Source: an uncultured bacterium
Lineage (GTDB): Bacteria; AUK180
Length of the DNA: 38,075 bases
NCBI GenBank assembly: GCA_937863565.1
Contig: CALMGJ010000026.1
Coordinates: 1 to 38,075, forward strand
Direction: 5' to 3'
Below are positions 5,218 to 34,300 of the stretch, in pieces. The notes below the pieces were generated by a model. It did not search any database and was not told the origin of the DNA. It saw only the letters and a list, made by a program, of their open reading frames with translations. Position 1 is the stretch's first letter. Each line of letters starts with the position of its first letter. The translations under genes and the position numbers were made by a program.

Positions 5218-6249
5218 ATGGAACCACTACAGGACATATTAAAGAAAACTTCCGTTTCCGGACACGAGGGGGAACTGGGCAGTTTTATCATGGAAAGTTT
5301 CAAAAAGTGCCGGTTGAAAACGGAAACCTCCAAATGCGGCAATATTATCGGTGTTAAAAAGGGCTCTTCCGATAAAAGAAAGGTCCTTATCGACGCTCAT
5401 TACGATCAAGTAGGCCTTATCGTTAAGAAGATAGACGGTCCTTTCCTCCGGATCAAGAACATAGGCGGGATCGATTACCGTGTTCTCCCCGGCAGCGAGG
5501 TCAGGGTCTACGGTAAAAAGGTTCTGAGGGGGATCTTTGCGGCAAAGCCGCCTCATCTTCTCAGGAAGGGCGAAACGGATAAGGCCATTTCGTCTGATGA
5601 TCTGCTTGTCGATACCGGGCTTGATGAGAAAGAACTTAAAGATAATGTTTCCCCCGGGGATATCGTCGCCTATAATGTAGAACCCTTCACTTCCGGCAAA
5701 TATACGTTCGGAAGCGGGATCGACAACAGAGCCGGCGCACTGGTCCTTCTTAAACTTGCTGAATTTCTCCGCGACCACGAGGTGCGGGACACTGTTGTTC
5801 TGAGAACAACCGTAATGGAAGAGACAGGAGGACGCGGCGCGGCCATGGAAGAGGATTTCGATATCGCCGTCGTGATAGACGCCACATTCGCCAAGCAGCA
5901 GGGCACGAAGGACGATTGCGTTTTCAATCCCGATGACGGGATAACGCTTTCATACGGTCCCAATTATTCGAGACGGCTCACGAAAGAGATCGAAGAGATC
6001 GCAAAAAAACACGGGATCAAGACCCAAAGAGAGGTCGAGGAGAGCGTGAGGGGCACCAATGCTTTTCGTTATGCCGTGCTTTCCGGAGGCCATGAAGTGA
6101 TAGGGATCTCCTATCCGATGTACAATATGCATGCTCCCTGCGAAGCGGTTAAAAGCTCCCTTGTCGACAATATGGCCGATATGCTCATGCATTTCATCAT
6201 TGAATCGTCCGATGCAGGCCGGCACAAGACGGAAGGAGGAACAAGATGA
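5218..6249 (+). CDS. M42 family (TET-like) metallo-aminopeptidase, paralog 1
   Basis: SVSGHE, DAHYDQVG, IGGID, DNRAG, MEETG, IDATF and NMH metal-ligand motifs. Confidence 0.85.
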   Translation: MEPLQDILKKTSVSGHEGELGSFIMESFKKCRLKTETSKCGNIIGVKKGSSDKRKVLIDAHYDQVGLIVKKIDGPFLRIKNIGGIDYRVLPGSEVRVYGKKVLRGIFAAKPPHLLRKGETDKAISSDDLLVDTGLDEKELKDNVSPGDIVAYNVEPFTSGKYTFGSGIDNRAGALVLLKLAEFLRDHEVRDTVVLRTTVMEETGGRGAAMEEDFDIAVVIDATFAKQQGTKDDCVFNPDDGITLSYGPNYSRRLTKEIEEIAKKHGIKTQREVEESVRGTNAFRYAVLSGGHEVIGISYPMYNMHAPCEAVKSSLVDNMADMLMHFIIESSDAGRHKTEGGTR

Positions 6250-7271
6250 AATTCGCCTTGGAACTTTCGGATGAATTCGGACCTTCCGGACAGGAAGAAC
6301 GCGTTGCCGCTCTTATCAAAAAAGAACTTTCCGGCGCATCCCTTTCATTTGTGAGCGATCCCCTGGGTTCCCTGATCGCCGAGAAGATCGGAAGATCCAA
6401 AGGCCCCGGAATAATCCTTTCCGCACATATGGATGAAGTCGGTTTCATGATCTCACATATCCACGAGGACGGCACTCTTTCTTTCAGGATCATAGGCGGG
6501 ATCGATAAAAGAGTACTTCCCGGAAAGACCGTCGTGATAGGAGACGGCCGGGTAAAGGGTGTGATCATGGTGCCTCCGGTCCATCTTTCCAAAGGCGATG
6601 ATCCTTACGAAGCGGAGGACCTGCGGATGTTCATCGGTGCAGGATGTCTCGAGGAAGCCTCCGAGAGGGTCGGGGTCGGAGATTGCGCCGTTTTCGCAAC
6701 AAAGGCATGCAGAACGGGTGAAAGGCTCATGGGGAAGGCTTGGGATGACCGCATCGGCTGCTTTGTTCTGACCGAGATACTTAAAAAGAACTGGGATATA
6801 AACATAACCGGAATATTCACTGTTCAGGAAGAAGTGGGTTTGAGGGGTATTCAGACCGCGCTGCATCATGTGAAAGGCGAATTCGGGTTCGCCGTGGAAG
6901 GAACGACATCTTACGAAATACCCGCGGAGCCCGAGGTTTCACCCTCAACATGGCTTTCAAAAGGACCTGCGATAACGGCAATGGACAGGGCCTCGATCGG
7001 ATCCCCTTCGCTGAAAAAACTTCTGGAAGAAGTGGCAAAAAAGGGAAATATTCCCTTTCAGTACAAGAAGACGGCAACGGGCGGGACCGAAACGAAATTC
7101 CTTCAGCAGAACCGGACCGGCATGCAGGCAATATGCCTTTCCGTGCCTGTGCGTTATATACATTCACCGGCAGGCATCTGCTCCGAGGATGACGTGAAAA
7201 ATACCGTGCTTCTTCTCGAGAAGACGATGCGGCTTCTTGAGGCTAAATTAAAAAAAGTGTATGGAGGATGA
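6246..7271 (+). CDS. M42 family (TET-like) metallo-aminopeptidase, paralog 2
   Basis: GPSGQE, SAHMDEVG, GKAWDDRIG, QEEVGLRG, VEGT, RYIHSP; ATGA overlap with paralog 1. Confidence 0.9.
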   Translation: MKFALELSDEFGPSGQEERVAALIKKELSGASLSFVSDPLGSLIAEKIGRSKGPGIILSAHMDEVGFMISHIHEDGTLSFRIIGGIDKRVLPGKTVVIGDGRVKGVIMVPPVHLSKGDDPYEAEDLRMFIGAGCLEEASERVGVGDCAVFATKACRTGERLMGKAWDDRIGCFVLTEILKKNWDINITGIFTVQEEVGLRGIQTALHHVKGEFGFAVEGTTSYEIPAEPEVSPSTWLSKGPAITAMDRASIGSPSLKKLLEEVAKKGNIPFQYKKTATGGTETKFLQQNRTGMQAICLSVPVRYIHSPAGICSEDDVKNTVLLLEKTMRLLEAKLKKVYGG

Positions 7272-7274
7272 TAT

Positions 7275-8288
7275 ATGTCTTTTGATACGGCATTACTGAA
7301 AAAACTGACAGAGGCCTTCGGCCCTTCGGGGAGAGAGGGCGATGTCGAGAGCATCGTCACCGAACATCTCAAATCGCTCAAACTTGCACCGAAAAAAGAC
7401 CAGAACGGAAATGTCAGCGTGACACTTGGTAAGGGCGGCAAGAAGATCATGCTCGCGGCCCATATGGACGAAGTGGGCGTGATGGTCTCATATATAGACG
7501 AGAAAGGTTTTCTGAAGATATCGCCGGTCGGGTTCATCTACCCCGAACAGCTTTTGGGCAACAGGGTCCTTTTCGACAACGGAAAGTGGGGTGTTTTTTC
7601 CTTTGAAAAGACGATGCCTAAAGTGAAGGTGGATATGGATTCGGTTTTCGTGGATGTCGGGGCAAAAGACAGGGCCCGGGCGGAAAAGGATTTTCCCGTA
7701 GGGACCTTCGGCGTATTTCATCGCGAACTGACTGAACTTGAGGGCGGAAGGATGCTCGCCAAAGCCTTTGACGACCGGATCGGGGTTTATATTCTTATCA
7801 AAACGATCGAGGCGCTTAAGGACAGGGAGCTCAAGAACACCTTGCATTTCACTTTTACCGTTCAGGAGGAGTTCTCCGGCCTCGGGGCGCAGACCTCGGG
7901 ATATGCTTTCGCTCCGGATATGGCGATAGCTGTAGATGTGACCGATTCCGACGATACGCGCGAGAAAGTACACCTCAATATGGTGCTTGACGGAGGCCCT
8001 GCGGTCAAAGTGATGGATTCCTCCCTGATCTCGCATCCCGCACTGAAGAACTATTTCATCGGTGTCGCAACTGAAAAGAAGATACCTTTTCAGCTGGAAG
8101 TGCTTCCATTCGGCGGCACGGACGCGGGAACGCTTTCGCTTCTCCATAAAGGGGTGCCGGCCATCTGCATATCCATTCCCACAAGATATATACACACGCC
8201 CTCGGAGATCATATCCAAGGATGATGTGAATAATTCCGTGAGGCTTCTCGAAGAGGCGCTTATAGGGAAAATAGGCGAGATCATATGA
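7275..8288 (+). CDS. M42 family (TET-like) metallo-aminopeptidase, paralog 3
   Basis: GPSGRE, AAHMDEVG, KAFDDRIG, QEEF, AVDVT, GGTDAG, RYIHTP; GGAGG RBS. Confidence 0.9.
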   Translation: MSFDTALLKKLTEAFGPSGREGDVESIVTEHLKSLKLAPKKDQNGNVSVTLGKGGKKIMLAAHMDEVGVMVSYIDEKGFLKISPVGFIYPEQLLGNRVLFDNGKWGVFSFEKTMPKVKVDMDSVFVDVGAKDRARAEKDFPVGTFGVFHRELTELEGGRMLAKAFDDRIGVYILIKTIEALKDRELKNTLHFTFTVQEEFSGLGAQTSGYAFAPDMAIAVDVTDSDDTREKVHLNMVLDGGPAVKVMDSSLISHPALKNYFIGVATEKKIPFQLEVLPFGGTDAGTLSLLHKGVPAICISIPTRYIHTPSEIISKDDVNNSVRLLEEALIGKIGEII

Positions 8289-9094
8289 AACCGGAGTTAA
8301 AAGCGGCAGAGCACATTCGTAAAAGATTCAAGGAAAGAACGGATTGGGCTCTCGTGCAGGGCTCCGGCATCAATGCCTTTCCTGAAGGGACAGAGGCGGC
8401 CGCAACTTTCCGGTATTCCGATATACCGGGGTTCCCCGTTTCAACCGTTGCCGGTCACAAGGGCGAACTTGCTTTCGTAAAATTCAAGGATTCTTTCATA
8501 GCCGTGTTCAAGGGAAGAGTACATTACTATGAGGGCTATTCTTCCTGGGATACCGTTTTCCCTATGCGTTTGGCAAAAGAGCTCGGAGTGAGGAACGCGG
8601 TCCTGACCAACGCCGCCGGATCACTTGATAAAGATATCGCGCCCGGCGATCTTGCGGTGATTCGCGATACGATCAATTTTGCTCAGGTGAACCCCTTCAT
8701 CGGAGTGATCCCGGAAGAAGGAGAGCGTTTCATAGATATGGGGAATGCCCTTTCACCTGATCTTATCGATACGGCAAAGACCGTATTCCAAAAACTCGGG
8801 TTGCCGTTTAAACAGGGTGTCTACGTGTATCTTACCGGCCCGTGTTATGAAACTAAGGCCGAGGTGAGAATGCTTTCGGGTATAGGCGGAAGCCTTGTGG
8901 GTATGTCCACTGTGCCTGAGATCATCTTCGCCAAACAGGCCGGTATAAGAACGTTTGCGTTGTCTTTATGCACGAATTTCGCCGCCGGAATGTCCGGCTC
9001 TTCTTTAAGTCATGAGGAAGTGATTGAAACAGGCAGAAAGGCACAGGGAGATCTTGTGCGTTTTTTCAGGGAATTCTTTGATGTTCTACTCTAA
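8285..9094 (+). CDS. punA: Purine nucleoside phosphorylase (trimeric family)
   Basis: GSG, IPGFPVSTVAGHKG, GRVHYYEG, TNAAG, GPCYET.AE, VGMSTVPE, TN.AAG, LSHEEV. Confidence 0.9.
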   Translation: MKPELKAAEHIRKRFKERTDWALVQGSGINAFPEGTEAAATFRYSDIPGFPVSTVAGHKGELAFVKFKDSFIAVFKGRVHYYEGYSSWDTVFPMRLAKELGVRNAVLTNAAGSLDKDIAPGDLAVIRDTINFAQVNPFIGVIPEEGERFIDMGNALSPDLIDTAKTVFQKLGLPFKQGVYVYLTGPCYETKAEVRMLSGIGGSLVGMSTVPEIIFAKQAGIRTFALSLCTNFAAGMSGSSLSHEEVIETGRKAQGDLVRFFREFFDVLL

Positions 9095-11216
9095 AGAAAA
9101 CTGGAAAAAATACTATATCAACGAAAAGCTCTCCCAAACGCTTTCTCTGAATTACGCCACCGAAAGCGATATTGTGGATTATTACCTCAGAAGGGGAAAG
9201 GAGGGCTTTCTGCCATTTCTCGACAGGGACTTTCCGCTTTTTTTCGAATACCAGAGCGTTAAAAATATAAATAAAGCCGCGGTCTTTATAGACAATCATT
9301 TCTCGAATAATGAAAAGACCCTTGTCATCTACGATAAAGATCTAGACGGATACGGGGCGCAGAGAATATTCGAGATACTCAATGAGGAGTATTACCGCAA
9401 CGGGAACGTTACCGCCAAGGAATTCTGGAACAATATCCCTATTTTTTCCGAGGATGACGCGAAGCAGGTCCTGAGCGAGGAGTATGAAACGGTCATCTTC
9501 CTTGACATGGGCCAGAATTCCACGGAAGGCCTGAGCTGTCTTGTAAGACAAGGGAAGAACGTTCTGGTCATAGACCATCATCTGCAGGATTTCTATGCCG
9601 TGCCGAAGGTTATCTACCTCACTCCTAATTTCTGCAAAGAGGGTTATCCCTCGGCGGCAGGACTCGTTTATCTTCTGCGCAGACAGGTCGAGCGGCGGCG
9701 TCTGGAGGACTTCAAAAAGACATATGTGATCCTGGACATAGAGACGACCGGGCTAGATCCTTCAAGCGACGACATCATCGAGATCGCCGCGGTGAAGATA
9801 GAGGGCGGGGAGATATGCCAGCGTTTTGAAGCGCTTTTAAAAACAGATAAGGAGCTTCCTAAGGAGATCAGCGCGATCACCGGGATCACGCGGCAGGCGA
9901 TCGACGAAGAGGGAAAGAACCCGGAATCGATGATCAGACTTTTGCGGTATTTCATCGGCGAATCCGAAGTGGTTGCGCATAATCCGTCCTTCGACCTCAA
10001 TTTTCTCAACGCACATTTCAAAAGATACAAGATCGTGCCGGTGGATCTAAATAGGGCCGTTGATACGGTAGAACTTTCCCGCAAGTTCGTAAAAGGACTG
10101 CTTTCGTATTCCCTCGAAAGCGTTGTGAAGAATCTTTTCCTTTACGAGGGGAAGTTCCACAGGGCTTTTCTTGATGTTGAAGCGACATACCGCCTCTTTT
10201 TGGAACTTTTGAAGAAAAAGAACAATATGCGCACATTCGTGCGGGACGAAGCCCTTCTCATCTATTATGTAACGACATTCTCAGACCGTATGATAATGGA
10301 CGGCGTTAACTATTTCTTTCTGAAGAAGATCGATAATTTCATCTGTTTCCCTGATGTCGTGAAGGATACCAGCTATTCGGGCAATCTTATAAATACTTAC
10401 TATATGTTCGACAAGCTCGTGGCCATCCTGAATTCCAAATACAGGGAGAATGAGACGGAACAGATCGATGCCTTTTTCCGCAGCAAGGAACTGAATATCT
10501 TCGCCAGAAGAGGAGAACCCGCGGCAGATTCCTCAAAGGTGCTCACCAATGCGCGTGAATTGAACCCGAATGGCAGGGTCAGGGTCTTTATCATCGAGAA
10601 GAAATTCCTCGACAGGAAGGGGGCTGTGGCGGCGCAACTTTCGAAGAACACGGAAGCGCCCTCGGTCATCCTGGTTCAGGACAGTCCTCTTTACGGTTCC
10701 GCCCGCTTCCTCGAATCCGATATTCTCAAGTTCTTCAAGCAGAACGAGGACCTCTTCATAACCTTTGGCGGGCACGGAAAGGCGGTTGGATTCACTATTG
10801 AGAATTTCAAGGTTCCCGAGTTCATAGAAAAATTCGAGATCTGGTTCAGCATCTATGACAAAAGCCATGAACCGCAGAACATCTACTTCGACGAAAAACT
10901 CCCTCTTGAAGAAGTATCGGAGAACATTAAAAGACTTGTGAAAATGTGCGGGCCTTACGGCGGTCCTTTCACTCCGCCCACTTACTATGATTTCCCCGTT
11001 CGGATCACCAATATAAGACGTTACGGCGGACAGGGGAAATCGCTTTTTCTGGAATTGGAGAAAGCGGGGGCCGTATTTTACGGGATCTCGCCGTTCAACG
11101 GCAAATACGGTCCGAAATTGAAAACGGACGGGATATATAAGATATTGTACACCCCCATGCTGAAAAAATATCAGGATAGGGATATCGTCCACATTTACGA
11201 TCTGGCGGAAATATAA
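9081..11216 (+). CDS. recJ: RecJ-like ssDNA exonuclease (DHH + DHHA1) with an inserted DnaQ-like DEDDh 3'-5' exonuclease domain
   Basis: DHH-family motifs YDKDLDG, LDMG, IDHH (9573-9581), SAAG.VY; insert LDIETTG..IIEIAAV..VAHN..FD..FL..DT..HRA..D (about 9720-10210); then RecJ-like T.SD, GAVAAQL, GSAR, FGGH..AVG. ATG 9081 preferred over GTG 9024. Confidence 0.75.
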   Translation: MFYSKENWKKYYINEKLSQTLSLNYATESDIVDYYLRRGKEGFLPFLDRDFPLFFEYQSVKNINKAAVFIDNHFSNNEKTLVIYDKDLDGYGAQRIFEILNEEYYRNGNVTAKEFWNNIPIFSEDDAKQVLSEEYETVIFLDMGQNSTEGLSCLVRQGKNVLVIDHHLQDFYAVPKVIYLTPNFCKEGYPSAAGLVYLLRRQVERRRLEDFKKTYVILDIETTGLDPSSDDIIEIAAVKIEGGEICQRFEALLKTDKELPKEISAITGITRQAIDEEGKNPESMIRLLRYFIGESEVVAHNPSFDLNFLNAHFKRYKIVPVDLNRAVDTVELSRKFVKGLLSYSLESVVKNLFLYEGKFHRAFLDVEATYRLFLELLKKKNNMRTFVRDEALLIYYVTTFSDRMIMDGVNYFFLKKIDNFICFPDVVKDTSYSGNLINTYYMFDKLVAILNSKYRENETEQIDAFFRSKELNIFARRGEPAADSSKVLTNARELNPNGRVRVFIIEKKFLDRKGAVAAQLSKNTEAPSVILVQDSPLYGSARFLESDILKFFKQNEDLFITFGGHGKAVGFTIENFKVPEFIEKFEIWFSIYDKSHEPQNIYFDEKLPLEEVSENIKRLVKMCGPYGGPFTPPTYYDFPVRITNIRRYGGQGKSLFLELEKAGAVFYGISPFNGKYGPKLKTDGIYKILYTPMLKKYQDRDIVHIYDLAEI

Positions 11217-11219
11217 GAA

Positions 11220-14200
11220 TTGAAGGATTTTTTTTATTCTCTTGAGAGCTTTAACGAATTCTTCCGGGTTTTCTGCAGAAAGGGAGGCCATACCTGCAAG
11301 ATATCGTCCGACTTGAACGTCGTCAATCTTCTTTATTCATACCTTTCATTCCGGAAATCAGGATATAATACTTTCTTTTTCACATTCTCCCCTATAGACG
11401 CCGAACGGGCGGCCGCTTTCCTTGATTCCTGTTTTCCTCAAGAAAACGGGGTCATCCATGTATATCCCGATGAAGACGGGCCCGCCCTGGACAGGCTTTA
11501 CGGAATCTATGCCGCCGGTGCGCCCTCTTTCATCATCGCTCCGTTCGAATTCGCTTTTTCATATATCCCTGATAAAAAGGAGCTTTTCAGCAATGTTCTT
11601 TCCCTGAAAAAGGGCGTGAGCACGGGAAGCGGGCTCGGTGATTTTCTTACCGAGAACGGATACATTAGAAATGCCGCCGTATGGGAACAGGGGGAGTTCT
11701 CTTCAAGGGGGGATATTACAGACATATTTCCTTTCGGCGCCGATTATCCCGTGAGGATCGAGCTCTTCGGGGATTCGATCGAGGCCATCTATACTTTTGA
11801 TCCCGCCAAACAGGAAAAATTGGACGATATGGACGGACTTTTTCTTATGCCCCGGAGCAAACAGCTCAAAAGAACGAAAAGGCTGATGCAGATCGCGGGA
11901 AAGAACGACTGTATCGTTTTGAACAATATCGAACTCATCCTGGAGCGTATGAATTTTCTTTTCCGGCAGAAAGCGGTGGGACGCATCGAAGAACCTGTGG
12001 AGCAGTTCGAGACGATCACTGCAAAGAGGAATCTCATTAAGATCTACAAGGTTATGGCCTCCGCGGATTTCGAACTTGAGATCAGCTCTTTCGGGTTCAC
12101 GAATTTTTCGAATAACATAGAACTCTTCGCCAGGAACTTCGAAAGCTGGATAGCGGATAATTACAGGATCGTCTTTTTCGTCAGGAACGACGAGCGAATA
12201 GCGGCGCTTGAAAAGATCCTTTTCGAGTTCGATTCTTTTCTGAAGCACCGGAAATCGGTCACCTTCCTGCGCGGCGATTTCGAGAAGGGCTTCATCCTCC
12301 TTAACGACAGGATCGTTGCTATTTCGGAAAGAGATATCCTCGAAATAAAAAAGAAAGGCATACTGGACAGCGGCATCAGGCAGAGCATAGACGAAGAACT
12401 GAAGAACATTTCACCCGGGGAATATGTCGTTCACGAAGATTACGGCATAGGCCGGTTCGCCGGCATCGTTACAAAAGGCATCGCGGGCTCTTTCGGAGAT
12501 TTTTTCGCCGTAGAGTACAGGAATGCGGAAAAACTCCTCCTTCCAGTCGGACGCATCTATAAGATCCATAAGTATATATCGGGAGGCGTATCAAAACCCG
12601 AACTGGACACCCTGAGAGGGGATTCCTGGGATAAGAAAAAGAGATCTACTGTAAAAAGCCTTGAGAAGATGCTCGTGGAGGTCGCCCGTCTTTACGCCGA
12701 AAGAGAGATCATGAAAAGCTTCCCCTTTCCCGGGGATGACGAAATGCAGAAGGCCTTCGAGGACGATTTCGCGTTCGAAGAGACGGAAGACCAGAGAAAG
12801 GTCACCGAAGAGATCAAAAAAGATATGCGCTCCGAGAAACCGATGGACAGACTTCTTGTGGGAGATGTGGGGTTCGGCAAGACCGAGATCGCGATGCGCG
12901 CCGTATTCAAGGCGGTTTATCACGGAAAACAGGCTGCAGTGCTGGTCCCTACGACAGTACTCGCCGAACAGCATTTTATAACCTTCAAGGAACGCTTCGA
13001 GAGATACGGCATCATGACGGTTATGCTTTCCAGGATAACGCCGAAGGAAGAACTGAAGCGGATTATCGATGATATTTCAAAGGGCAGAGCGGGCATAGTG
13101 ATCGGGACTCACAGGATATTTTCCAAGGACATTTCCTTCAAAGATCTCGGGCTTCTGGTGATCGACGAGGAACAGCGCTTCGGTGTGAAGGCAAAAGAGA
13201 GGATCAGGCTTGTAAAGAAGAACGTTCATACGCTGACGATGAGCGCCACCCCGATCCCGCGCACGCTCTATTTCTCTCTATCCCAGATCAGACCGCTTTC
13301 GCTGATCGAGACCGCACCCCCGGGCCGGATGCCGATAAAGACCTTTGTAAGTATATTCAATAAGGAAATGCTCCGGGCCGCGATACTCGAGGAGGTCAAG
13401 CGCGGAGGGCAGGTATTCTTCATCCATAACCGGATCGATGAACTTGAAGAGGTGGGTTCAATGCTCTCGGAAATGCTTCCCGGGATAAGGATCGCCTCCA
13501 TGCACGGAAGGAAGGATCCGCGAGAGATCGAGGAGACGATGACCGGATTCCAGGAGGGCCTTTACGATATCCTGGTTTCAACCACGATCATAGAGATAGG
13601 GATCGATCTTCCGAACGTGAACACGATCATAATCAATAACGGTGAGAATTTCGGCCTGGCGCAGTTGTACCAGCTGCGGGGAAGGGTAGGCAGATCCTAC
13701 CGGCAGGCTTATGCGTATATTTTTGTTTCCTCTCTGGATAAGATGAATCCCGATGCCGTAAAGAGGCTTTCAGCGATAAAGGAGCATCAGATGCTCGGTT
13801 CCGGGTACGAACTTGCCGTGAAGGATATGGAAATACGGGGGATCGGAGACCTTTTCGGAGCAAGACAATCCGGTAATATGTCCTGCATCGGCCTCGGTAT
13901 GTACATGAAAATACTCAATACACTTGTGGAGAAGATCAAAAAGAACGAAAAAATGCTTGAGGAGATCGATGTGGATATCGGCATTATGCCATATATCCCG
14001 AAAGAGGTCGTCCGGTATGAGGCAGAAAGGCAGCGCATCTATCTTGATATAATAAATGCGGGGGACGAGGATAGTTTAAATTCAATAAGGGAGAGAATGT
14101 CCCGTGTTTATAGTCCGATGCCGGACGCCCTTATCACTCTTTTCGATTACCAGTGGATCAGAATAAAGGGGATCGGCGCGGGAATAAACAAGATCGTGCT

Positions 14201-14375
14201 GAAGAACAATGCGCTTTATTTCAGGTCCGAAAAGAACGCCGAGATCATCCATACCGTTCTGAAAAAGCAGTATCAGCTTGATATTTCGATCAAGGGGCCC
14301 GTTGTAAGCATGAGCATCACTGAAGAGAATATCATTGAGAAAGTAAAAAATATATTGAAAAATTTGCCTTTATGA
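11220..14375 (+). CDS. mfd: Transcription-repair coupling factor
   Basis: GEFSSRGDITDIF (UvrB-homology), GEYVVHEDYGIGRF (RID), GDVGFGKTE, DEEQRFG, SATPIPRTL, QLRGRVGR, DMEIRG.GDLFG..QSG; TTG start. Confidence 0.95.
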   Translation: MKDFFYSLESFNEFFRVFCRKGGHTCKISSDLNVVNLLYSYLSFRKSGYNTFFFTFSPIDAERAAAFLDSCFPQENGVIHVYPDEDGPALDRLYGIYAAGAPSFIIAPFEFAFSYIPDKKELFSNVLSLKKGVSTGSGLGDFLTENGYIRNAAVWEQGEFSSRGDITDIFPFGADYPVRIELFGDSIEAIYTFDPAKQEKLDDMDGLFLMPRSKQLKRTKRLMQIAGKNDCIVLNNIELILERMNFLFRQKAVGRIEEPVEQFETITAKRNLIKIYKVMASADFELEISSFGFTNFSNNIELFARNFESWIADNYRIVFFVRNDERIAALEKILFEFDSFLKHRKSVTFLRGDFEKGFILLNDRIVAISERDILEIKKKGILDSGIRQSIDEELKNISPGEYVVHEDYGIGRFAGIVTKGIAGSFGDFFAVEYRNAEKLLLPVGRIYKIHKYISGGVSKPELDTLRGDSWDKKKRSTVKSLEKMLVEVARLYAEREIMKSFPFPGDDEMQKAFEDDFAFEETEDQRKVTEEIKKDMRSEKPMDRLLVGDVGFGKTEIAMRAVFKAVYHGKQAAVLVPTTVLAEQHFITFKERFERYGIMTVMLSRITPKEELKRIIDDISKGRAGIVIGTHRIFSKDISFKDLGLLVIDEEQRFGVKAKERIRLVKKNVHTLTMSATPIPRTLYFSLSQIRPLSLIETAPPGRMPIKTFVSIFNKEMLRAAILEEVKRGGQVFFIHNRIDELEEVGSMLSEMLPGIRIASMHGRKDPREIEETMTGFQEGLYDILVSTTIIEIGIDLPNVNTIIINNGENFGLAQLYQLRGRVGRSYRQAYAYIFVSSLDKMNPDAVKRLSAIKEHQMLGSGYELAVKDMEIRGIGDLFGARQSGNMSCIGLGMYMKILNTLVEKIKKNEKMLEEIDVDIGIMPYIPKEVVRYEAERQRIYLDIINAGDEDSLNSIRERMSRVYSPMPDALITLFDYQWIRIKGIGAGINKIVLKNNALYFRSEKNAEIIHTVLKKQYQLDISIKGPVVSMSITEENIIEKVKNILKNLPL

Positions 14376-30515: not shown

Positions 30516-31352
30516 TTACTGCCGGCGGCCGGCGATTTCTCCGCCGCTGTCCTTTAAATGAACGTTCAGGCTCTTGAACGGTATCTCGATGCCTTTTTCG
30601 TCGAACCTCAATTTGGCTTCTTCATTGAGGGCGTACAGAACATCCCAATAATTCTCTTTTTTCACCCAGACCTTCATGACGAGGTCCACGGAACTCTCAC
30701 CGAGCTTGCTTACCGCAACTACAGGGGCGGGATCCTTTAATATATCGGTATGGGATGCGATCAGATCGCCCAGTACATCCTTGGCCAATTTAAGGTCTGC
30801 GTCATACGCTATTCCCACAACAAGGTCCAGTCTTCTTGTATCCATCGCCGAATAATTTATTATATGCGAAGAGATCACGCTATTGTTCGGTATCGATATC
30901 TTTTTATTGTCGAAAGAAAGAAGCACGGTATGGAAAATATCCACCTCTTTAACGCTTCCGTCAACACCCGCCACCGATATATAATCTCCAACATCGTACG
31001 CCTTGAAGAAGATCAGCATGATGCCGGCCGCAAGGTTCGCAAGGGAGTCCTTGAAGGCAAATGCGATGGCAACACCTGCGGATCCCAGGATGGCAATGAA
31101 TGATGTGGTCGGGATCCCCAGCTTTCCCAGCGCCATCAGGACCACCATCACTATGATAAGGTAGTGTATCACGTCGGCAAGGAAGCGTGTGACCGTAGCT
31201 CTAAGTTGGATCTTTGAGGAGGCTTTTAAGAAAACCCTTTTTATCCCTCCTGCGAAGAGGAGACCGACAGTGAAAATGATGACCGCATATATGATGTTCG
31301 GCCCGTATTTCTTTATGAATTCGATCAGGATATCAAGAAGGTCTTTGATCAT
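30516..31352 (-). CDS. mscS: Small-conductance mechanosensitive channel
   Basis: Three TM helices, LGSAGVAIAFAFKDSLANLAAG, VGDYI, G.V.EVDIFHT, IPN, INYS...RRLDL.VGIAY, GIEIPF. Confidence 0.93.
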   Translation of the reverse strand: MIKDLLDILIEFIKKYGPNIIYAVIIFTVGLLFAGGIKRVFLKASSKIQLRATVTRFLADVIHYLIIVMVVLMALGKLGIPTTSFIAILGSAGVAIAFAFKDSLANLAAGIMLIFFKAYDVGDYISVAGVDGSVKEVDIFHTVLLSFDNKKISIPNNSVISSHIINYSAMDTRRLDLVVGIAYDADLKLAKDVLGDLIASHTDILKDPAPVVAVSKLGESSVDLVMKVWVKKENYWDVLYALNEEAKLRFDEKGIEIPFKSLNVHLKDSGGEIAGRRQ

Positions 31353-32581
31353 ATCGCGCTTGGCAGAATGAATCCGGCTTCATTGCCGTCGCTGCTGTAC
31401 CGGAGGGATCCCATTTGGACGAATTTGATCTCGCCTTCCCGGCCGGTTTCAAGGTCCGTTACGACGGTTAATTCCTTTTTCAGGAAATCCGCCTTTTCAA
31501 CCGAACCCACCGCGATCGCAAAGCCGTCGGCATCGGCAAGGCCGACAAATGTTTTCTCGAGGTATGAGGGCCGGCAGTATCTTGCCCTGTATGAAGCGGC
31601 GATCTCGCCGGCCTTGGCAGGAGTTGTATCTTCCTTGAAAATAATGACATGCCCTTCCCAGGCCGGGAGTTTTTCGGCATACAGGATCTCGTTTTCCTTT
31701 GTTTCGAGCGGCTTGCCCGAGCCGAGGAATACCCTTTCGAACTTAAAGCCCGAGAACGGGAGCGCGATCTTGCGCGAGCCGGCAAAACATCTTCTCGAGA
31801 TCTTTTCCCTGAGTTCTTTTCTTACCGTTTGCGAGGTCGGGGTGGCCTTTCTCGAGACGCTCAATCTTACGATCTTTTCATCCGGCATATGTGCCGTAAG
31901 ATGTTCAAGTTCGCTGTCCCTTTGCATCAGTATCGCAAGATCGGGGTCCACTATTTCGAGTTTTGCCTTTTTTAAACATCTTGCCCCGTCGCCGTGTGTC
32001 CAGCCGGTGGTATTGACGATGAAACAATCGGTATGTTTTTCGGCATACGCCGCGATCTTTGCAATGCCGGCCAAAAATACGGTGAAAAGACCGCCCGGCG
32101 AATGGTTCCCGATAAAATACTGTTTTTGAACCGGTACGTCCGGGAGAGCGAAATAGTGTTTATCGAATATCCCGAACCCTATCGTTCCGGGAGCGCCGAT
32201 ATCGGATTGCCCCGTATCGCTGTCTATGATGCCTGTTCTTTTGTTCATGGCGGTGAGGCGGTTGGCAAGGAATATAGAGAAGAAGGATTTTCCCGTATCC
32301 ACCTCGCCGAGTATAACGACTCTTTTGATGTTTTCTTTCGCTATCCGTTCGGCAATGGCATACCAATTCTCCGGGATCGTATTATGGTCTAATTTCTCGA
32401 ATTTTTCGTTGGAAGGAACGAGTTCCCCGGCCTCTTTGCATATAAACGGCATCTGTTTACCTTCGGGGATATTTATTTCTCCGGACTTGAAGATCGCGCC
32501 GATGAGTTCGAAGGATCCGCTCTTGATTTCAACTTTTATCTCGCCTTTTGCAAGATAGATATCTCCTTTGTTGATCTTCAT
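31349..32581 (-). CDS. Clp1/Grc3/Nol9-family polynucleotide 5'-hydroxyl kinase
   Basis: P-loop GEVDTGKS (32308-32285), DSDTGQSDIGAPGT, VNTTGW, lid RKELRE; N-terminal beta-rich domain and C-terminal VGL.D.DG...VG domain of full-length Clp1/Grc3 proteins. Confidence 0.88.
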   Translation of the reverse strand: MKINKGDIYLAKGEIKVEIKSGSFELIGAIFKSGEINIPEGKQMPFICKEAGELVPSNEKFEKLDHNTIPENWYAIAERIAKENIKRVVILGEVDTGKSFFSIFLANRLTAMNKRTGIIDSDTGQSDIGAPGTIGFGIFDKHYFALPDVPVQKQYFIGNHSPGGLFTVFLAGIAKIAAYAEKHTDCFIVNTTGWTHGDGARCLKKAKLEIVDPDLAILMQRDSELEHLTAHMPDEKIVRLSVSRKATPTSQTVRKELREKISRRCFAGSRKIALPFSGFKFERVFLGSGKPLETKENEILYAEKLPAWEGHVIIFKEDTTPAKAGEIAASYRARYCRPSYLEKTFVGLADADGFAIAVGSVEKADFLKKELTVVTDLETGREGEIKFVQMGSLRYSSDGNEAGFILPSAI

Positions 32582-32967
32582 CTTTCCTTCACCTCGTAAA
32601 CGAGAGTAGGCCAGATCTCTTCAAGCGTTGAGGCATTTATCTTGACCGTCTTTATTATCATATTTTTCCCGATCTTTTTTCCGCTCACGGATACGCTGTC
32701 CCCTGAGACCTTTTCAGCAACGCCGTATATCTCTTCCTCTTCAAGAACAAAAAGGTATTTTTGAGCCTGCTCAATTTCTTCCGGCTTTATTTCCTTCGTT
32801 ACCGAACCAAGACACATTGCAACGATCCCCGGAAGGATCGGCACCCTTTTTCTCAGCAATGAGGCCTCTCTGATGACATCGGCAATGAATTCCATGTTTC
32901 TGTATCTGACGAACAGGGAATCGATATAATCAAGTATGCCTACGAATTCATTCTCCCAGTAACTCAT
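32578..32967 (-). CDS. Hypothetical protein (129 aa) coupled between the DHH and Clp1 genes
   Basis: ATG 32967 lies 1 nt past the DHH stop with GGAG upstream; its stop overlaps the Clp1 ATG (ATGA). No family recognised. Confidence 0.75.
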   Translation of the reverse strand: MSYWENEFVGILDYIDSLFVRYRNMEFIADVIREASLLRKRVPILPGIVAMCLGSVTKEIKPEEIEQAQKYLFVLEEEEIYGVAEKVSGDSVSVSGKKIGKNMIIKTVKINASTLEEIWPTLVYEVKER

Positions 32968-32968
32968 A

Positions 32969-34273
32969 TCACACTCCGTATTTTGCTTTATCGAAACCGG
33001 ACAGCATCTCTTTCGCCATTGAAAGGAACTCATTAAGCGCGTTCACATATGAATAATCCGCGATCTTGACATTGCACTCTGCCGCCTTGGGATGTCCTCC
33101 GCCGGAAATGAATTGTTTTTTATCGTCCGTAACGGTGGATCTCAGTTTTTCCGCCAGCGTGCCGCACAGTTTTCCCGAGTGGACAACACCGCCGGTGGCG
33201 CGCACGGAAAAATGGACGCCGTATCCGATCTTAGCGGCCATGATCAGGATGGCATCTCCCCCTTCGGCAAGATCGAACAGCGCGACCGAACCCAGCATCG
33301 GCATGAGGTTCATCTCTATGCCGGCATAGAGGAACACCCGCGTATCCTCGATCCGGCCCGCTTCCACTGCCGTGGAAAGGAGATCGAGCCCTCTCAGCCA
33401 GTCGTCCTCGAAGCATTTAAGTATCTTCATCGCATGGTCTTTGTGGCCTTTTATATTAAGAAGGTCTTTCTCGCTTTTGAATTTTTTCAGCGGTTGCTTC
33501 GCCTTTCTGAGCCCGATAAGCATTTCGAAGGCCAAGCGGGGCTGGAAAATATCCTTGAGCGACGGGTCCTTGTCATTGTAGAAGAACTGGAAGGCGCCGC
33601 CGGAGATCGCGTGAAGGTCGTGGGTATACCTTGAAAGAAGCGTGCTGTGTTCTTTCTGTGACGCTTCGAACATCGTCGGGGGAAGGTCCGTCCTTTTTTT
33701 CACATATTCCGGATGGTTCGCGGCAAACTCGTCATATAGCGGCCTCACATAATCGGAAACGCTGTCTATGGCCGGGTCTATCGCCCAGTCGCCTTTAAGC
33801 CCCGCCATGGCATAAAAGTCGAGGATATCATCCCTCAGGCCCATCGCAGTTGCGATATTGTGGCAGATATATGAGGCCGAACAGTATGAATTGGGTTTTA
33901 GGGAGGGATTATACCACATCACCTTCTCCGGGACAGCCGGGGTGAAGTGGTGGTCGATGGTTAAAAATTTCACCTTCTCCGAAAAATATTTGTCATATTC
34001 CGACAGTGTTCCCTTGTCCGTTATTATTATCGCTTCATAATTGCCTTCCGGGATATCCTCTTTCCTCAGCGCAAAAGCGGAGGGGAACTCGAGACGGTAA
34101 TCGATCTTAAGATATTCGAATAGCTCGCTCATTATTGCGGCCGAGGAGATCCCGTCGGGATCGTCATGCGAAAAATACAGTATTTTCTTACCCGCAAGGG
34201 ACACGAGAAATTCGGTGATCTTCTTAAAATTCTCATCATTGCTCAAATTCGCGATGAATTCTTTATAGCTCAT
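32969..34273 (-). CDS. DHH/DHHA1-family phosphoesterase
   Basis: SHDDPDGISSA, ITDKG, IDHH, CSASY, AGLKGDW, FSVR, SGGGHPKAA; GAGGTG RBS before ATG 34273. Confidence 0.88.
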   Translation of the reverse strand: MSYKEFIANLSNDENFKKITEFLVSLAGKKILYFSHDDPDGISSAAIMSELFEYLKIDYRLEFPSAFALRKEDIPEGNYEAIIITDKGTLSEYDKYFSEKVKFLTIDHHFTPAVPEKVMWYNPSLKPNSYCSASYICHNIATAMGLRDDILDFYAMAGLKGDWAIDPAIDSVSDYVRPLYDEFAANHPEYVKKRTDLPPTMFEASQKEHSTLLSRYTHDLHAISGGAFQFFYNDKDPSLKDIFQPRLAFEMLIGLRKAKQPLKKFKSEKDLLNIKGHKDHAMKILKCFEDDWLRGLDLLSTAVEAGRIEDTRVFLYAGIEMNLMPMLGSVALFDLAEGGDAILIMAAKIGYGVHFSVRATGGVVHSGKLCGTLAEKLRSTVTDDKKQFISGGGHPKAAECNVKIADYSYVNALNEFLSMAKEMLSGFDKAKYGV

Positions 34274-34300
34274 AGACACCTCTTTATTCCTAAACTATAT

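Follow-up and report, generated by a model that had tools for sequence, protein, structure and literature searches.

A RecJ-family protein carrying a complete DEDDh exonuclease domain within its DHH domain

Introduction

The DHH active site of RecJ degrades single strands from their 5' ends, whereas DEDDh exonuclease sites, such as that of DnaQ, cut from 3' ends. Escherichia coli divides 5'-3' and 3'-5' strand removal among RecJ, ExoVII, ExoI and ExoX. DEDDh domains also occur as modules of other enzymes, and the exonuclease domain of PolC is embedded in its host (PMC12926913). Here we describe a gene in which the two families are joined. In a 38,075-nucleotide contig of an uncultured bacterium of the AUK180 lineage (CALMGJ010000026.1, assembly GCA_937863565.1; hereafter the window), positions 9081..11216 of the forward strand encode a 711-residue protein, recognized from its open reading frame, Pfam and NCBIfam profiles and an AlphaFold model. 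It is a RecJ with DHH, DHHA1-like and OB domains that holds a complete DEDDh exonuclease in a loop of its DHH domain. The initial annotation, made from the letters of the window, had proposed this nested arrangement; Pfam matches, motifs, predicted fold and the site of insertion, ahead of D402, now agree on it.

Domain architecture of the fusion

The reading frame was started at ATG 9081 in preference to TTG 9024 because relatives in the same family start at the equivalent methionine. Pfam profiles place DHH at residues 80-202, RNase_T at 216-373 and RecJ_OB at 604-703 (E 1.9e-7); the RNase_T match (PF00929, E 1e-31) covers model positions 1-164 of 164 and is full-length. The recJ model TIGR00644 matches in two stretches that total 119 bits, below its curated cut-off of 396.9. 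A domain scan proposed with the initial annotation was to look for DHH, RNase_T and DHHA1: the first two were found, while Pfam DHHA1 was not detected in the protein. The motifs themselves lie where they had been read, with DHH at residue 165, SAAG at 191, DIE at 219, AHN at 299, FD at 304, HRA at 360 with D365, TFSD at 399, GSAR at 539 and GGH at 563.

Along the gene, the N-terminal part of the DHH domain (residues 80-205, 9318..9695) contributes D85, D87, D89, D142 and D165-H166-H167, and the EGYG loop that would carry the Tyr114 equivalent is deleted from it. The DEDDh insert follows; placed at about 9720-10210 by the initial annotation, it extends over 9726-10199 by Pfam and 9702-10232 by structure. 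The C-terminal part of the DHH domain and a linker (residues 385-495, 10233..10565, bounds approximate) hold D402, N451 and R455, and a gateway helix about 13 residues shorter than in relatives. The DHHA1-like domain (residues 496-600, 10566..10880, bounds likewise approximate), identified from a TIGR00644 stretch at 514-669 and from structural alignment to RecJ, contains GSAR (S540, R542) and GGH (H565). The RecJ OB-fold domain (residues 601-711, 10881..11213) ends the chain, and no C-terminal domain was found beyond it. When a profile of 46 fusions was aligned with RecJ, the insertion site fell between the equivalents of Deinococcus radiodurans residues 202 and 212, where the insert replaces a short loop. 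Since the metal ligand D402, the counterpart of D223, comes after the insert, the DEDDh domain is nested inside the DHH domain.

An AlphaFold2 model built from a 46-row alignment is confident (pLDDT 88.3, pTM 0.85), with low pLDDT at residues 430-438 and 475-482. Its flanking segments fold as a RecJ core, as the initial annotation had anticipated: they align with residues 1-560 of Staphylococcus aureus RecJ (8y30) over 522 residues (rmsd 4.3, Z 21.5) and also with residues 3-533 of D. radiodurans RecJ, the RecJ alignments spanning 484-522 residues. Model residues 208-384 match the exonuclease domains of DnaQ, DinG and PolC (Z 25, rmsd 1.8-2.0 A), a DnaQ-type fold (Z 25.4, rmsd 1.9 to 8h18); among solved structures, the exonuclease of PolC (2p1j) is nearest in sequence.

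The two-metal site of RecJ is kept, with D85, D87, D89, D142, H166 and D402, plus D165 and H167, standing for D. radiodurans D79, D81, D83, D135, H159 and D223 with D158 and H160. The DEDDh residues are complete as well: D219 and E221 in ExoI, D305 in ExoII, and H360 and D365 in ExoIII. Judged from these residues and the model, both active sites look active, and they would be expected to act with opposite polarity.

Distribution of the fusion

Among 40 other genomes searched, the fusion is present in all six of the same family (44-56% identity; one split over two contigs), in the class relative G008 and in the unrelated genomes G016 and G035, while a second class relative, G007, gave a partial match to both fusion parts on one contig. 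The suspicion that similar fusions already stand in databases was borne out. A HMMER search of 1.84 billion representatives, of which the best 150 matches were listed so that counts are lower bounds, together with three proteins from a word-index search, gave at least 41 full-length proteins with a whole DEDDh insert at the same site, 38 of which represent separate 50%-identity clusters. These and five genome-derived rows make up the set of 46. A further 32 proteins with a shorter or altered insert were set apart, and two partial intact proteins and one repeat-like protein were left out. Word-index protein searches returned just 4 and 7 strong matches and under-report the family; a scan of named genomes returned mostly plain RecJ (at least 600 rows), and its list of phyla is a lower bound.

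Among the matches listed, all five DEDDh residues are kept in 43 of the 46 intact fusions and in none of the 32 altered inserts; the eight DHH residues are kept in 46 of 46. Going by depositors' labels, sources of the intact form include Elusimicrobia, Candidatus Calescamantes (a member of the cluster nearest to the fusion protein), Candidatus Dependentiae and Candidatus Hydrogenedentes, and those of the altered form Endomicrobiaceae and Spirochaetia; the proteins stand under plain RecJ or RNase H-like names. No published description of a RecJ-DEDDh fusion was found in a literature search that included the accessible part of PMC12345164 and excluded subscription papers and supplements, among them those of PMC12926913 and PMC3919608, where lists of DnaQ-like architectures may be found. 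In the parts accessible, PMC12926913 makes no mention of DHH and PMC11229311 none of DEDD or DnaQ, and PMC2779866 does not discuss domains. The architecture is widespread in little-studied phyla and apparently undescribed in print.

A remodelled RecJ half

Residue roles were mapped onto an alignment of five family proteins from the residues of D. radiodurans RecJ described in PMC4846377, where Y114 is credited with excluding ribose and alanine changes at Y114, R109, V224, F269, R313/314 or K353 impair the enzyme. The five proteins do not vary at any of the eight DHH catalytic positions, nor at N276, R280, S371, R373 or H397. In the same alignment the Y114 loop is gone in 5/5, V224 has become R in 5/5, F269 is D or N, R313 is absent in three of the five and K in two, K353 is lost and the gateway helix is about 13 residues shorter. 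In the fusion protein itself, the stacking positions Y80, Y114, V224 and F269 read K86, loop deleted, R403 and D444, and the gateway residues R313, R314 and K353 read A475, R476 (kept) and Q519; both sets serve processivity and DNA selectivity in RecJ. Two changes are shared more widely: throughout the subfamily of RecJs to which the fusions belong, the Y80 position usually holds R or K, and R109 is gone. In the 5'-phosphate pocket of the fusion protein R280, S371 and R373 are kept and R109 is lost, with K86 at the Y80 position, and the basic residue there may be a compensating swap for R109.

The initial annotation had described the RecJ part as more diverged than the insert, and mean identity to the 44 other intact fusions bears this out (22% for the N-terminal DHH part, 34% for the insert, 19% for the C-terminal DHH part with DHHA1); the G008 protein gives 47, 36 and 33%. 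Within the five family proteins identity is 34-61% by region. Relatives with the same insert pass the TIGR00644 cut-off (G008 552, G035 461 and G016 458 bits). In the insert tree the family groups as sister to G008 (support 96, stem 0.47), while the branch to the family in the RecJ-part tree measures 1.7-1.9 changes per site.

Both parts of the fusion are under purifying selection. Between G004 and G001 the whole gene shows 43 synonymous changes and 1 non-synonymous, and its RecJ parts 32 and 0; between G003 and G005 dN/dS is 0.08 in the N-terminal DHH part, 0.03 in the insert and 0.25 in the OB domain (G006 rows past about residue 589 were dropped from this analysis as a contig-end effect). 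Given the long branch and this selection, the RecJ half went through a rapid phase of change followed by conservation; it is remodelled, not decaying. New here is the form found in this family, backed by a paralogue (see below), in which DNA-stacking and RNA-excluding residues are lost and the catalytic ones kept.

Eroded inserts and history of the insertion

Altered inserts were compared with the intact domain by profile, with reversed and unrelated controls scoring below 0.5. A spirochaete-like group matched with probability 88.8 over 116 columns, two other groups with 97.8 and 95.7, and a mixed group with 84 over 32 columns, while a fifth group (motif DSDLDG, seven proteins) reached 21.5 over 28 columns, which is weak for a DEDDh origin. 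The phylum of G035 was taken as Spirochaetota since its protein groups with a Spirochaetota-labelled one, and is called the spirochaete phylum here. Its sample of 61 genomes provided 57 RecJ genes, of which 10 have an intact insert, 40 an altered one and 7 none; one further RecJ gene lay outside the count and three genomes had no RecJ match. This explains the extra 100-170 residues in most RecJs of this sample: they represent a DnaQ-like domain that has eroded, a point that matters for the interpretation of RecJ in the phylum. The Elusimicrobiota sample (51 genomes) divides into 12 intact, 17 altered and 21 without a RecJ match at E 1e-12, one genome having matched nothing. Those 21 all have a stand-alone DEDDh gene and are possibly a lineage that lost recJ.

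In a quick, unrooted tree of RecJ parts, one branch (support 99) has 74 plain RecJs and one intact fusion on one side, and 48 intact, 53 altered and 10 plain RecJs on the other; L028, labelled altered in this tree, is intact by separate inspection. The split would fit one old insertion with many losses. Protein P0151 falls among the plain RecJs although its DEDDh insert, at the usual site, is intact; a second insertion, recombination or a tree error could explain this. The idea that stand-alone DEDDh genes are copies excised from RecJ was not supported, as 18 of 20 from Elusimicrobiota form their own group (support 95) outside the inserts.

Other nucleases and polymerases of the genome

The initial annotation had asked whether the genome has a separate recJ or dnaQ. 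A second, plain recJ is present in all seven genomes of the family (383-467 bits), whereas G008, G016 and G035 have no strong recJ match besides the fusion. In the genome studied here (G000) the plain gene lies at C34:5983-7533, in a 549-residue frame with all canonical residues, and groups with plain RecJs on the tree; about 4.7 kb downstream of it is a gene whose start resembles that of a SurE nucleotidase. A separate dnaQ was not found by a PF00929 search of G000, which is 95.5% complete: the profile matched the insert alone there and in seven of the ten other genomes checked; a second match occurs in G001, G004 and G042. Against the DnaQ model TIGR01406 the insert scores 77.5 bits (cut-off 222.7).

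The DnaE of G000 keeps all nine PHP ligands, the ligand motif being taken as in PMC12926913, and five Elusimicrobiota DnaEs match them too, with one position in one of them unmatched by the pattern. Also in G000 (C29:52586-53410 and C29:4542-6221) are a stand-alone PHP-domain protein (431-residue frame) and a second DnaE-like gene (908-residue frame) with a degenerate N-terminus. Pol I of G000 (C30:67295-69796) is without a detectable 3'-5' exonuclease domain, the motifs of which are missing in G000, G004 and G133 and look intact in G035 and G008; compensation by the fusion for a dead Pol I exonuclease was therefore rejected as a general rule. The xseA gene of ExoVII is present in all five genomes checked. 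A pattern search for a clamp-binding motif in P0001-P0003 found none.

Stand-alone DEDDh genes were found in 1 of the 12 Elusimicrobiota genomes with an intact insert, in 15 of the 17 with an altered one and in 21 of the 21 without a RecJ match; in the spirochaete phylum they accompany 2 of 10 intact inserts and 27 of the 47 other RecJs, and 18 of the 40 genomes with an eroded insert have no stand-alone match. On raw counts, loss of the insert goes with gain of a stand-alone gene (Fisher p 2e-5 and 0.04), but only two independent pairs underlie co-evolution, which is not significant in a tree-aware test; the direction of the complementarity is suggestive.

Gene neighbourhood

The fusion gene lies in a row of forward-strand genes. 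Upstream, punA (8285..9094; PRK08202, 294 bits, above cut-off) encodes a purine nucleoside phosphorylase and overlaps the fusion start by 14 nt; before it stand three tandem M42 aminopeptidase genes (5218..8288; Pfam), the first two 27-34% identical to the third, and an M42 gene is also upstream in family relatives and in G008. Downstream, mfd (11220..14375; TIGR00580, 882 bits), encoding the transcription-repair coupling factor, starts 3 nt past the fusion stop, as the initial annotation had noted.

In a survey of loci of 3-12 kb, some ended by contig ends, punA accompanies 20 of 28 intact fusions (two of them duplicates), with pdp in 9 of these and in 17 of 34 altered forms; of 55 plain-RecJ loci a single one has punA or pdp, and the tree places its RecJ within the subfamily. 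In G000, pdp is on another contig. In samples that overlap those loci, Elusimicrobiota show a phosphorylase neighbour in 12/12 intact and 14/17 eroded cases, and the spirochaete phylum in 4/10 intact, 16/40 eroded and 0/7 plain. The link spans at least three phyla, so that a textbook repair nuclease is tied by gene order to nucleoside catabolism. The mfd gene adjoins the fusion in five loci, all of this family, and in none of the 21 intact loci outside it; it was accordingly rejected as a conserved partner outside the family, the neighbours that are conserved across phyla being nucleoside phosphorylase genes.

Three loci of one spirochaete-phylum group (L027, L107 and L108) have an aspartate carbamoyltransferase gene, of pyrimidine synthesis, upstream of the fusion in place of punA, so that nucleotide metabolism is represented there too. 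In G108 (L161:2153-4035) pdp and the recJ-DEDDh gene are separated by the anti-phage genes MADS3 and MADS4, which look like an island that entered the conserved cluster. Elsewhere in the window, the reverse strand at 31349-34279 encodes in a row a Clp1-type kinase (CLP1_P, E 7e-33), a 151-residue protein without assignment and a DHH/DHHA1 protein that weakly matches archaeal RecJ and has no sequence match in the PDB.

Proposed function and alternatives

Our leading reading, at about even odds, is an exonuclease working at both ends of short single-stranded fragments, which it would degrade to mononucleotides for salvage. One polypeptide would carry two metal-dependent exonuclease sites of opposite polarity, with single strands trimmed from the 3' end by the insert and from the 5' end by the DHH site, as in their families. 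Loose single-stranded fragments left by repair, replication or uptake would be reduced to mononucleotides, a role suggested by the gene neighbours, and these, once dephosphorylated, would feed the adjacent purine and pyrimidine nucleoside phosphorylases. In this family the plain second RecJ would presumably take over long-range 5' resection, and the DEDDh site would go on serving, as it did ancestrally, as the general 3'-5' trimming nuclease of the cell. Because stacking, gateway and RNA-excluding residues are lost, the fused DHH site is probably distributive on short oligonucleotides and possibly acts on RNA, with which loss of the Y114 equivalent is compatible.

Several points weigh against this proposal. 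The step from nucleotide to nucleoside is assumed. With xseA in all five genomes checked, a two-ended nuclease is not lacking, and the complementarity with stand-alone DEDDh genes comes down to its two independent pairs. The phosphorylase link survives erosion of the insert and so marks the RecJ subfamily, not the two-site form; it may be gene order inherited among kin, and the neighbour is missing from 6 of 10 intact spirochaete-phylum loci and from the G016 locus in both its copies. Finally, the alignment from which the gateway residues were mapped is gappy.

More tentatively, the salvage proposal may be extended to the history of the subfamily (Spirochaetota, Elusimicrobiota and several uncultured phyla), which would have begun as a two-headed recycling nuclease. 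In this family, freed by the second RecJ, the DHH half would have become an RNA-tolerant nuclease of short oligomers, so that DNA and RNA scraps are taken to mononucleotides from both ends, while most spirochaete RecJs would still hold a dead remnant of the DnaQ-like head.

Possible, though we doubt it, is an excision-repair nuclease that provides both directions of strand removal in mismatch, base-excision or transcription-coupled repair, with salvage incidental. The adjacency of mfd, here and in the other family loci, speaks for it, as do the part of RecJ in recombination and mismatch repair (PMC4846377, PMC2779866) and the trimming of repair intermediates by the DnaQ-like RNase T (PMC3942315); in G008, G016 and G035, moreover, the fusion must do ordinary RecJ work, being the only strong recJ match. 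Yet mfd is adjacent in no intact locus outside the family, the family has lost processivity residues and has a plain RecJ, and degradation of 3' tails would oppose RecJ's making of tails for recombination. Recycling and repair roles are not exclusive.

The initial annotation had considered a proofreading-like activity carried on RecJ. An auxiliary proofreader, like the non-canonical mycobacterial DnaQ, brought to forks or gaps on a RecJ scaffold is unlikely, even though no DEDDh domain other than the insert was detected in the genome, Pol I of G000 is without a detectable exonuclease domain, and the closest solved sequence is that of the PolC exonuclease. The Elusimicrobiota counts for stand-alone DEDDh genes (1/12 with intact against 15/17 with eroded inserts, and 21/21 without a RecJ match) point the same way, and the non-canonical DnaQ co-exists with an active PHP site and can dispense with its clamp motif (PMC11348249). 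The nine PHP ligands of DnaE and the lack of a clamp-binding motif in P0001-P0003 make a replicative proofreading role unlikely, however; Pol I exonuclease motifs look intact in two of five insert-bearing genomes, and the complementarity fails the tree-aware test for lack of power, with those 18 of 40 eroded spirochaete-phylum genomes lacking a stand-alone match.

It had also been proposed that the insert is the dominant activity. That the RecJ half is idle in this family, a DNA-binding scaffold for the DEDDh site as sole activity, strikes us as quite improbable. Its long branch (1.7-1.9 changes per site, that of the insert being 0.47), its low TIGR00644 score (119 against 397) and the alteration of positions whose change to alanine impairs D. 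radiodurans RecJ (PMC4846377) would suit such a scaffold. Against an idle half stand the invariance, in five family proteins, of the eight catalytic positions and of N276, R280, S371, R373 and H397, and purifying selection (in the N-terminal DHH part dN/dS is 0.08; G004 and G001 differ in their RecJ parts by 32 synonymous and no non-synonymous changes).

Finally, an assembly chimera or chance juxtaposition is practically inconceivable: the genome appears to be a draft assembly of 38 contigs, but independent genomes refute artefactual junctions, the same architecture crossing both in 6/6 other family genomes and at least 41 full-length proteins, and GC/GC3 of the insert (0.478/0.612) matches that of the flanks (0.454/0.585 and 0.471/0.626).

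A natural single-chain enzyme with putatively opposed exonuclease sites raises the question of how a cell keeps a destroyer of 3' tails beside a maker of them, and the family is a clear example of a fusion protein in which one half has been remodelled in the presence of a second copy. The surprise is moderate, as both parts belong to well-known families and the proteins already stand in databases.

Comparison with known systems

ExoVII (XseAB) attacks both ends of single-stranded DNA and is a working analogue of the fusion, unrelated to it and separately encoded. The nanoRNases, which prefer substrates of 2-5 nt and accept RNA, are not known to have an OB domain or the insert. Abstracts describe NrnA and NrnB (DHH-DHHA1) as reducing short oligomers to mononucleotides; a nanoRNase model was not among the top 25 NCBIfam matches of the fusion.

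Bacterial RecJs (D. radiodurans 5f54, 5f55 and 5f56, Thermus thermophilus 2zxo, S. aureus 8y30) have the same order and fold of DHH, DHHA1-like and OB domains, and share with the fusion the metal ligands, R280, S371, R373 and H397. The fusion differs in the 170-residue DEDDh domain that replaces the loop at D. radiodurans 202-212 and in being without a C-terminal SSB-binding domain. Its subfamily differs further in Y80 (R or K) and R109 (lost), and its family in loss of the Y114 loop, V224, F269 and part of the gateway and in the presence of a plain second RecJ.

PolC (2p1j, 9qpc), DinG (8zef, 9ii8) and Cas2-DnaQ (8h18, 8fyc) have the same complete DEDDh site and fold, likewise as a module on another nucleic-acid enzyme, but their hosts are a polymerase, a helicase and an integrase, whereas the host here would be an exonuclease of opposite polarity. 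With E. coli DnaQ (epsilon) and mycobacterial DnaQ the insert shares its DEDDh chemistry, and like the non-canonical mycobacterial protein it co-exists with a putatively active PHP proofreader (PMC11348249). Unlike epsilon, a free-standing subunit with a clamp-binding motif and an alpha-binding tail, it is nested, no clamp motif was found in it, the DnaE of the genome keeps its PHP ligands, and it stays far below the TIGR01406 cut-off. The RecJ-DEDDh proteins of Elusimicrobiota have the same architecture, insertion site and nucleoside phosphorylase neighbours; their RecJ half is canonical, whereas that of the fusion described here is remodelled and accompanied by a plain second RecJ.

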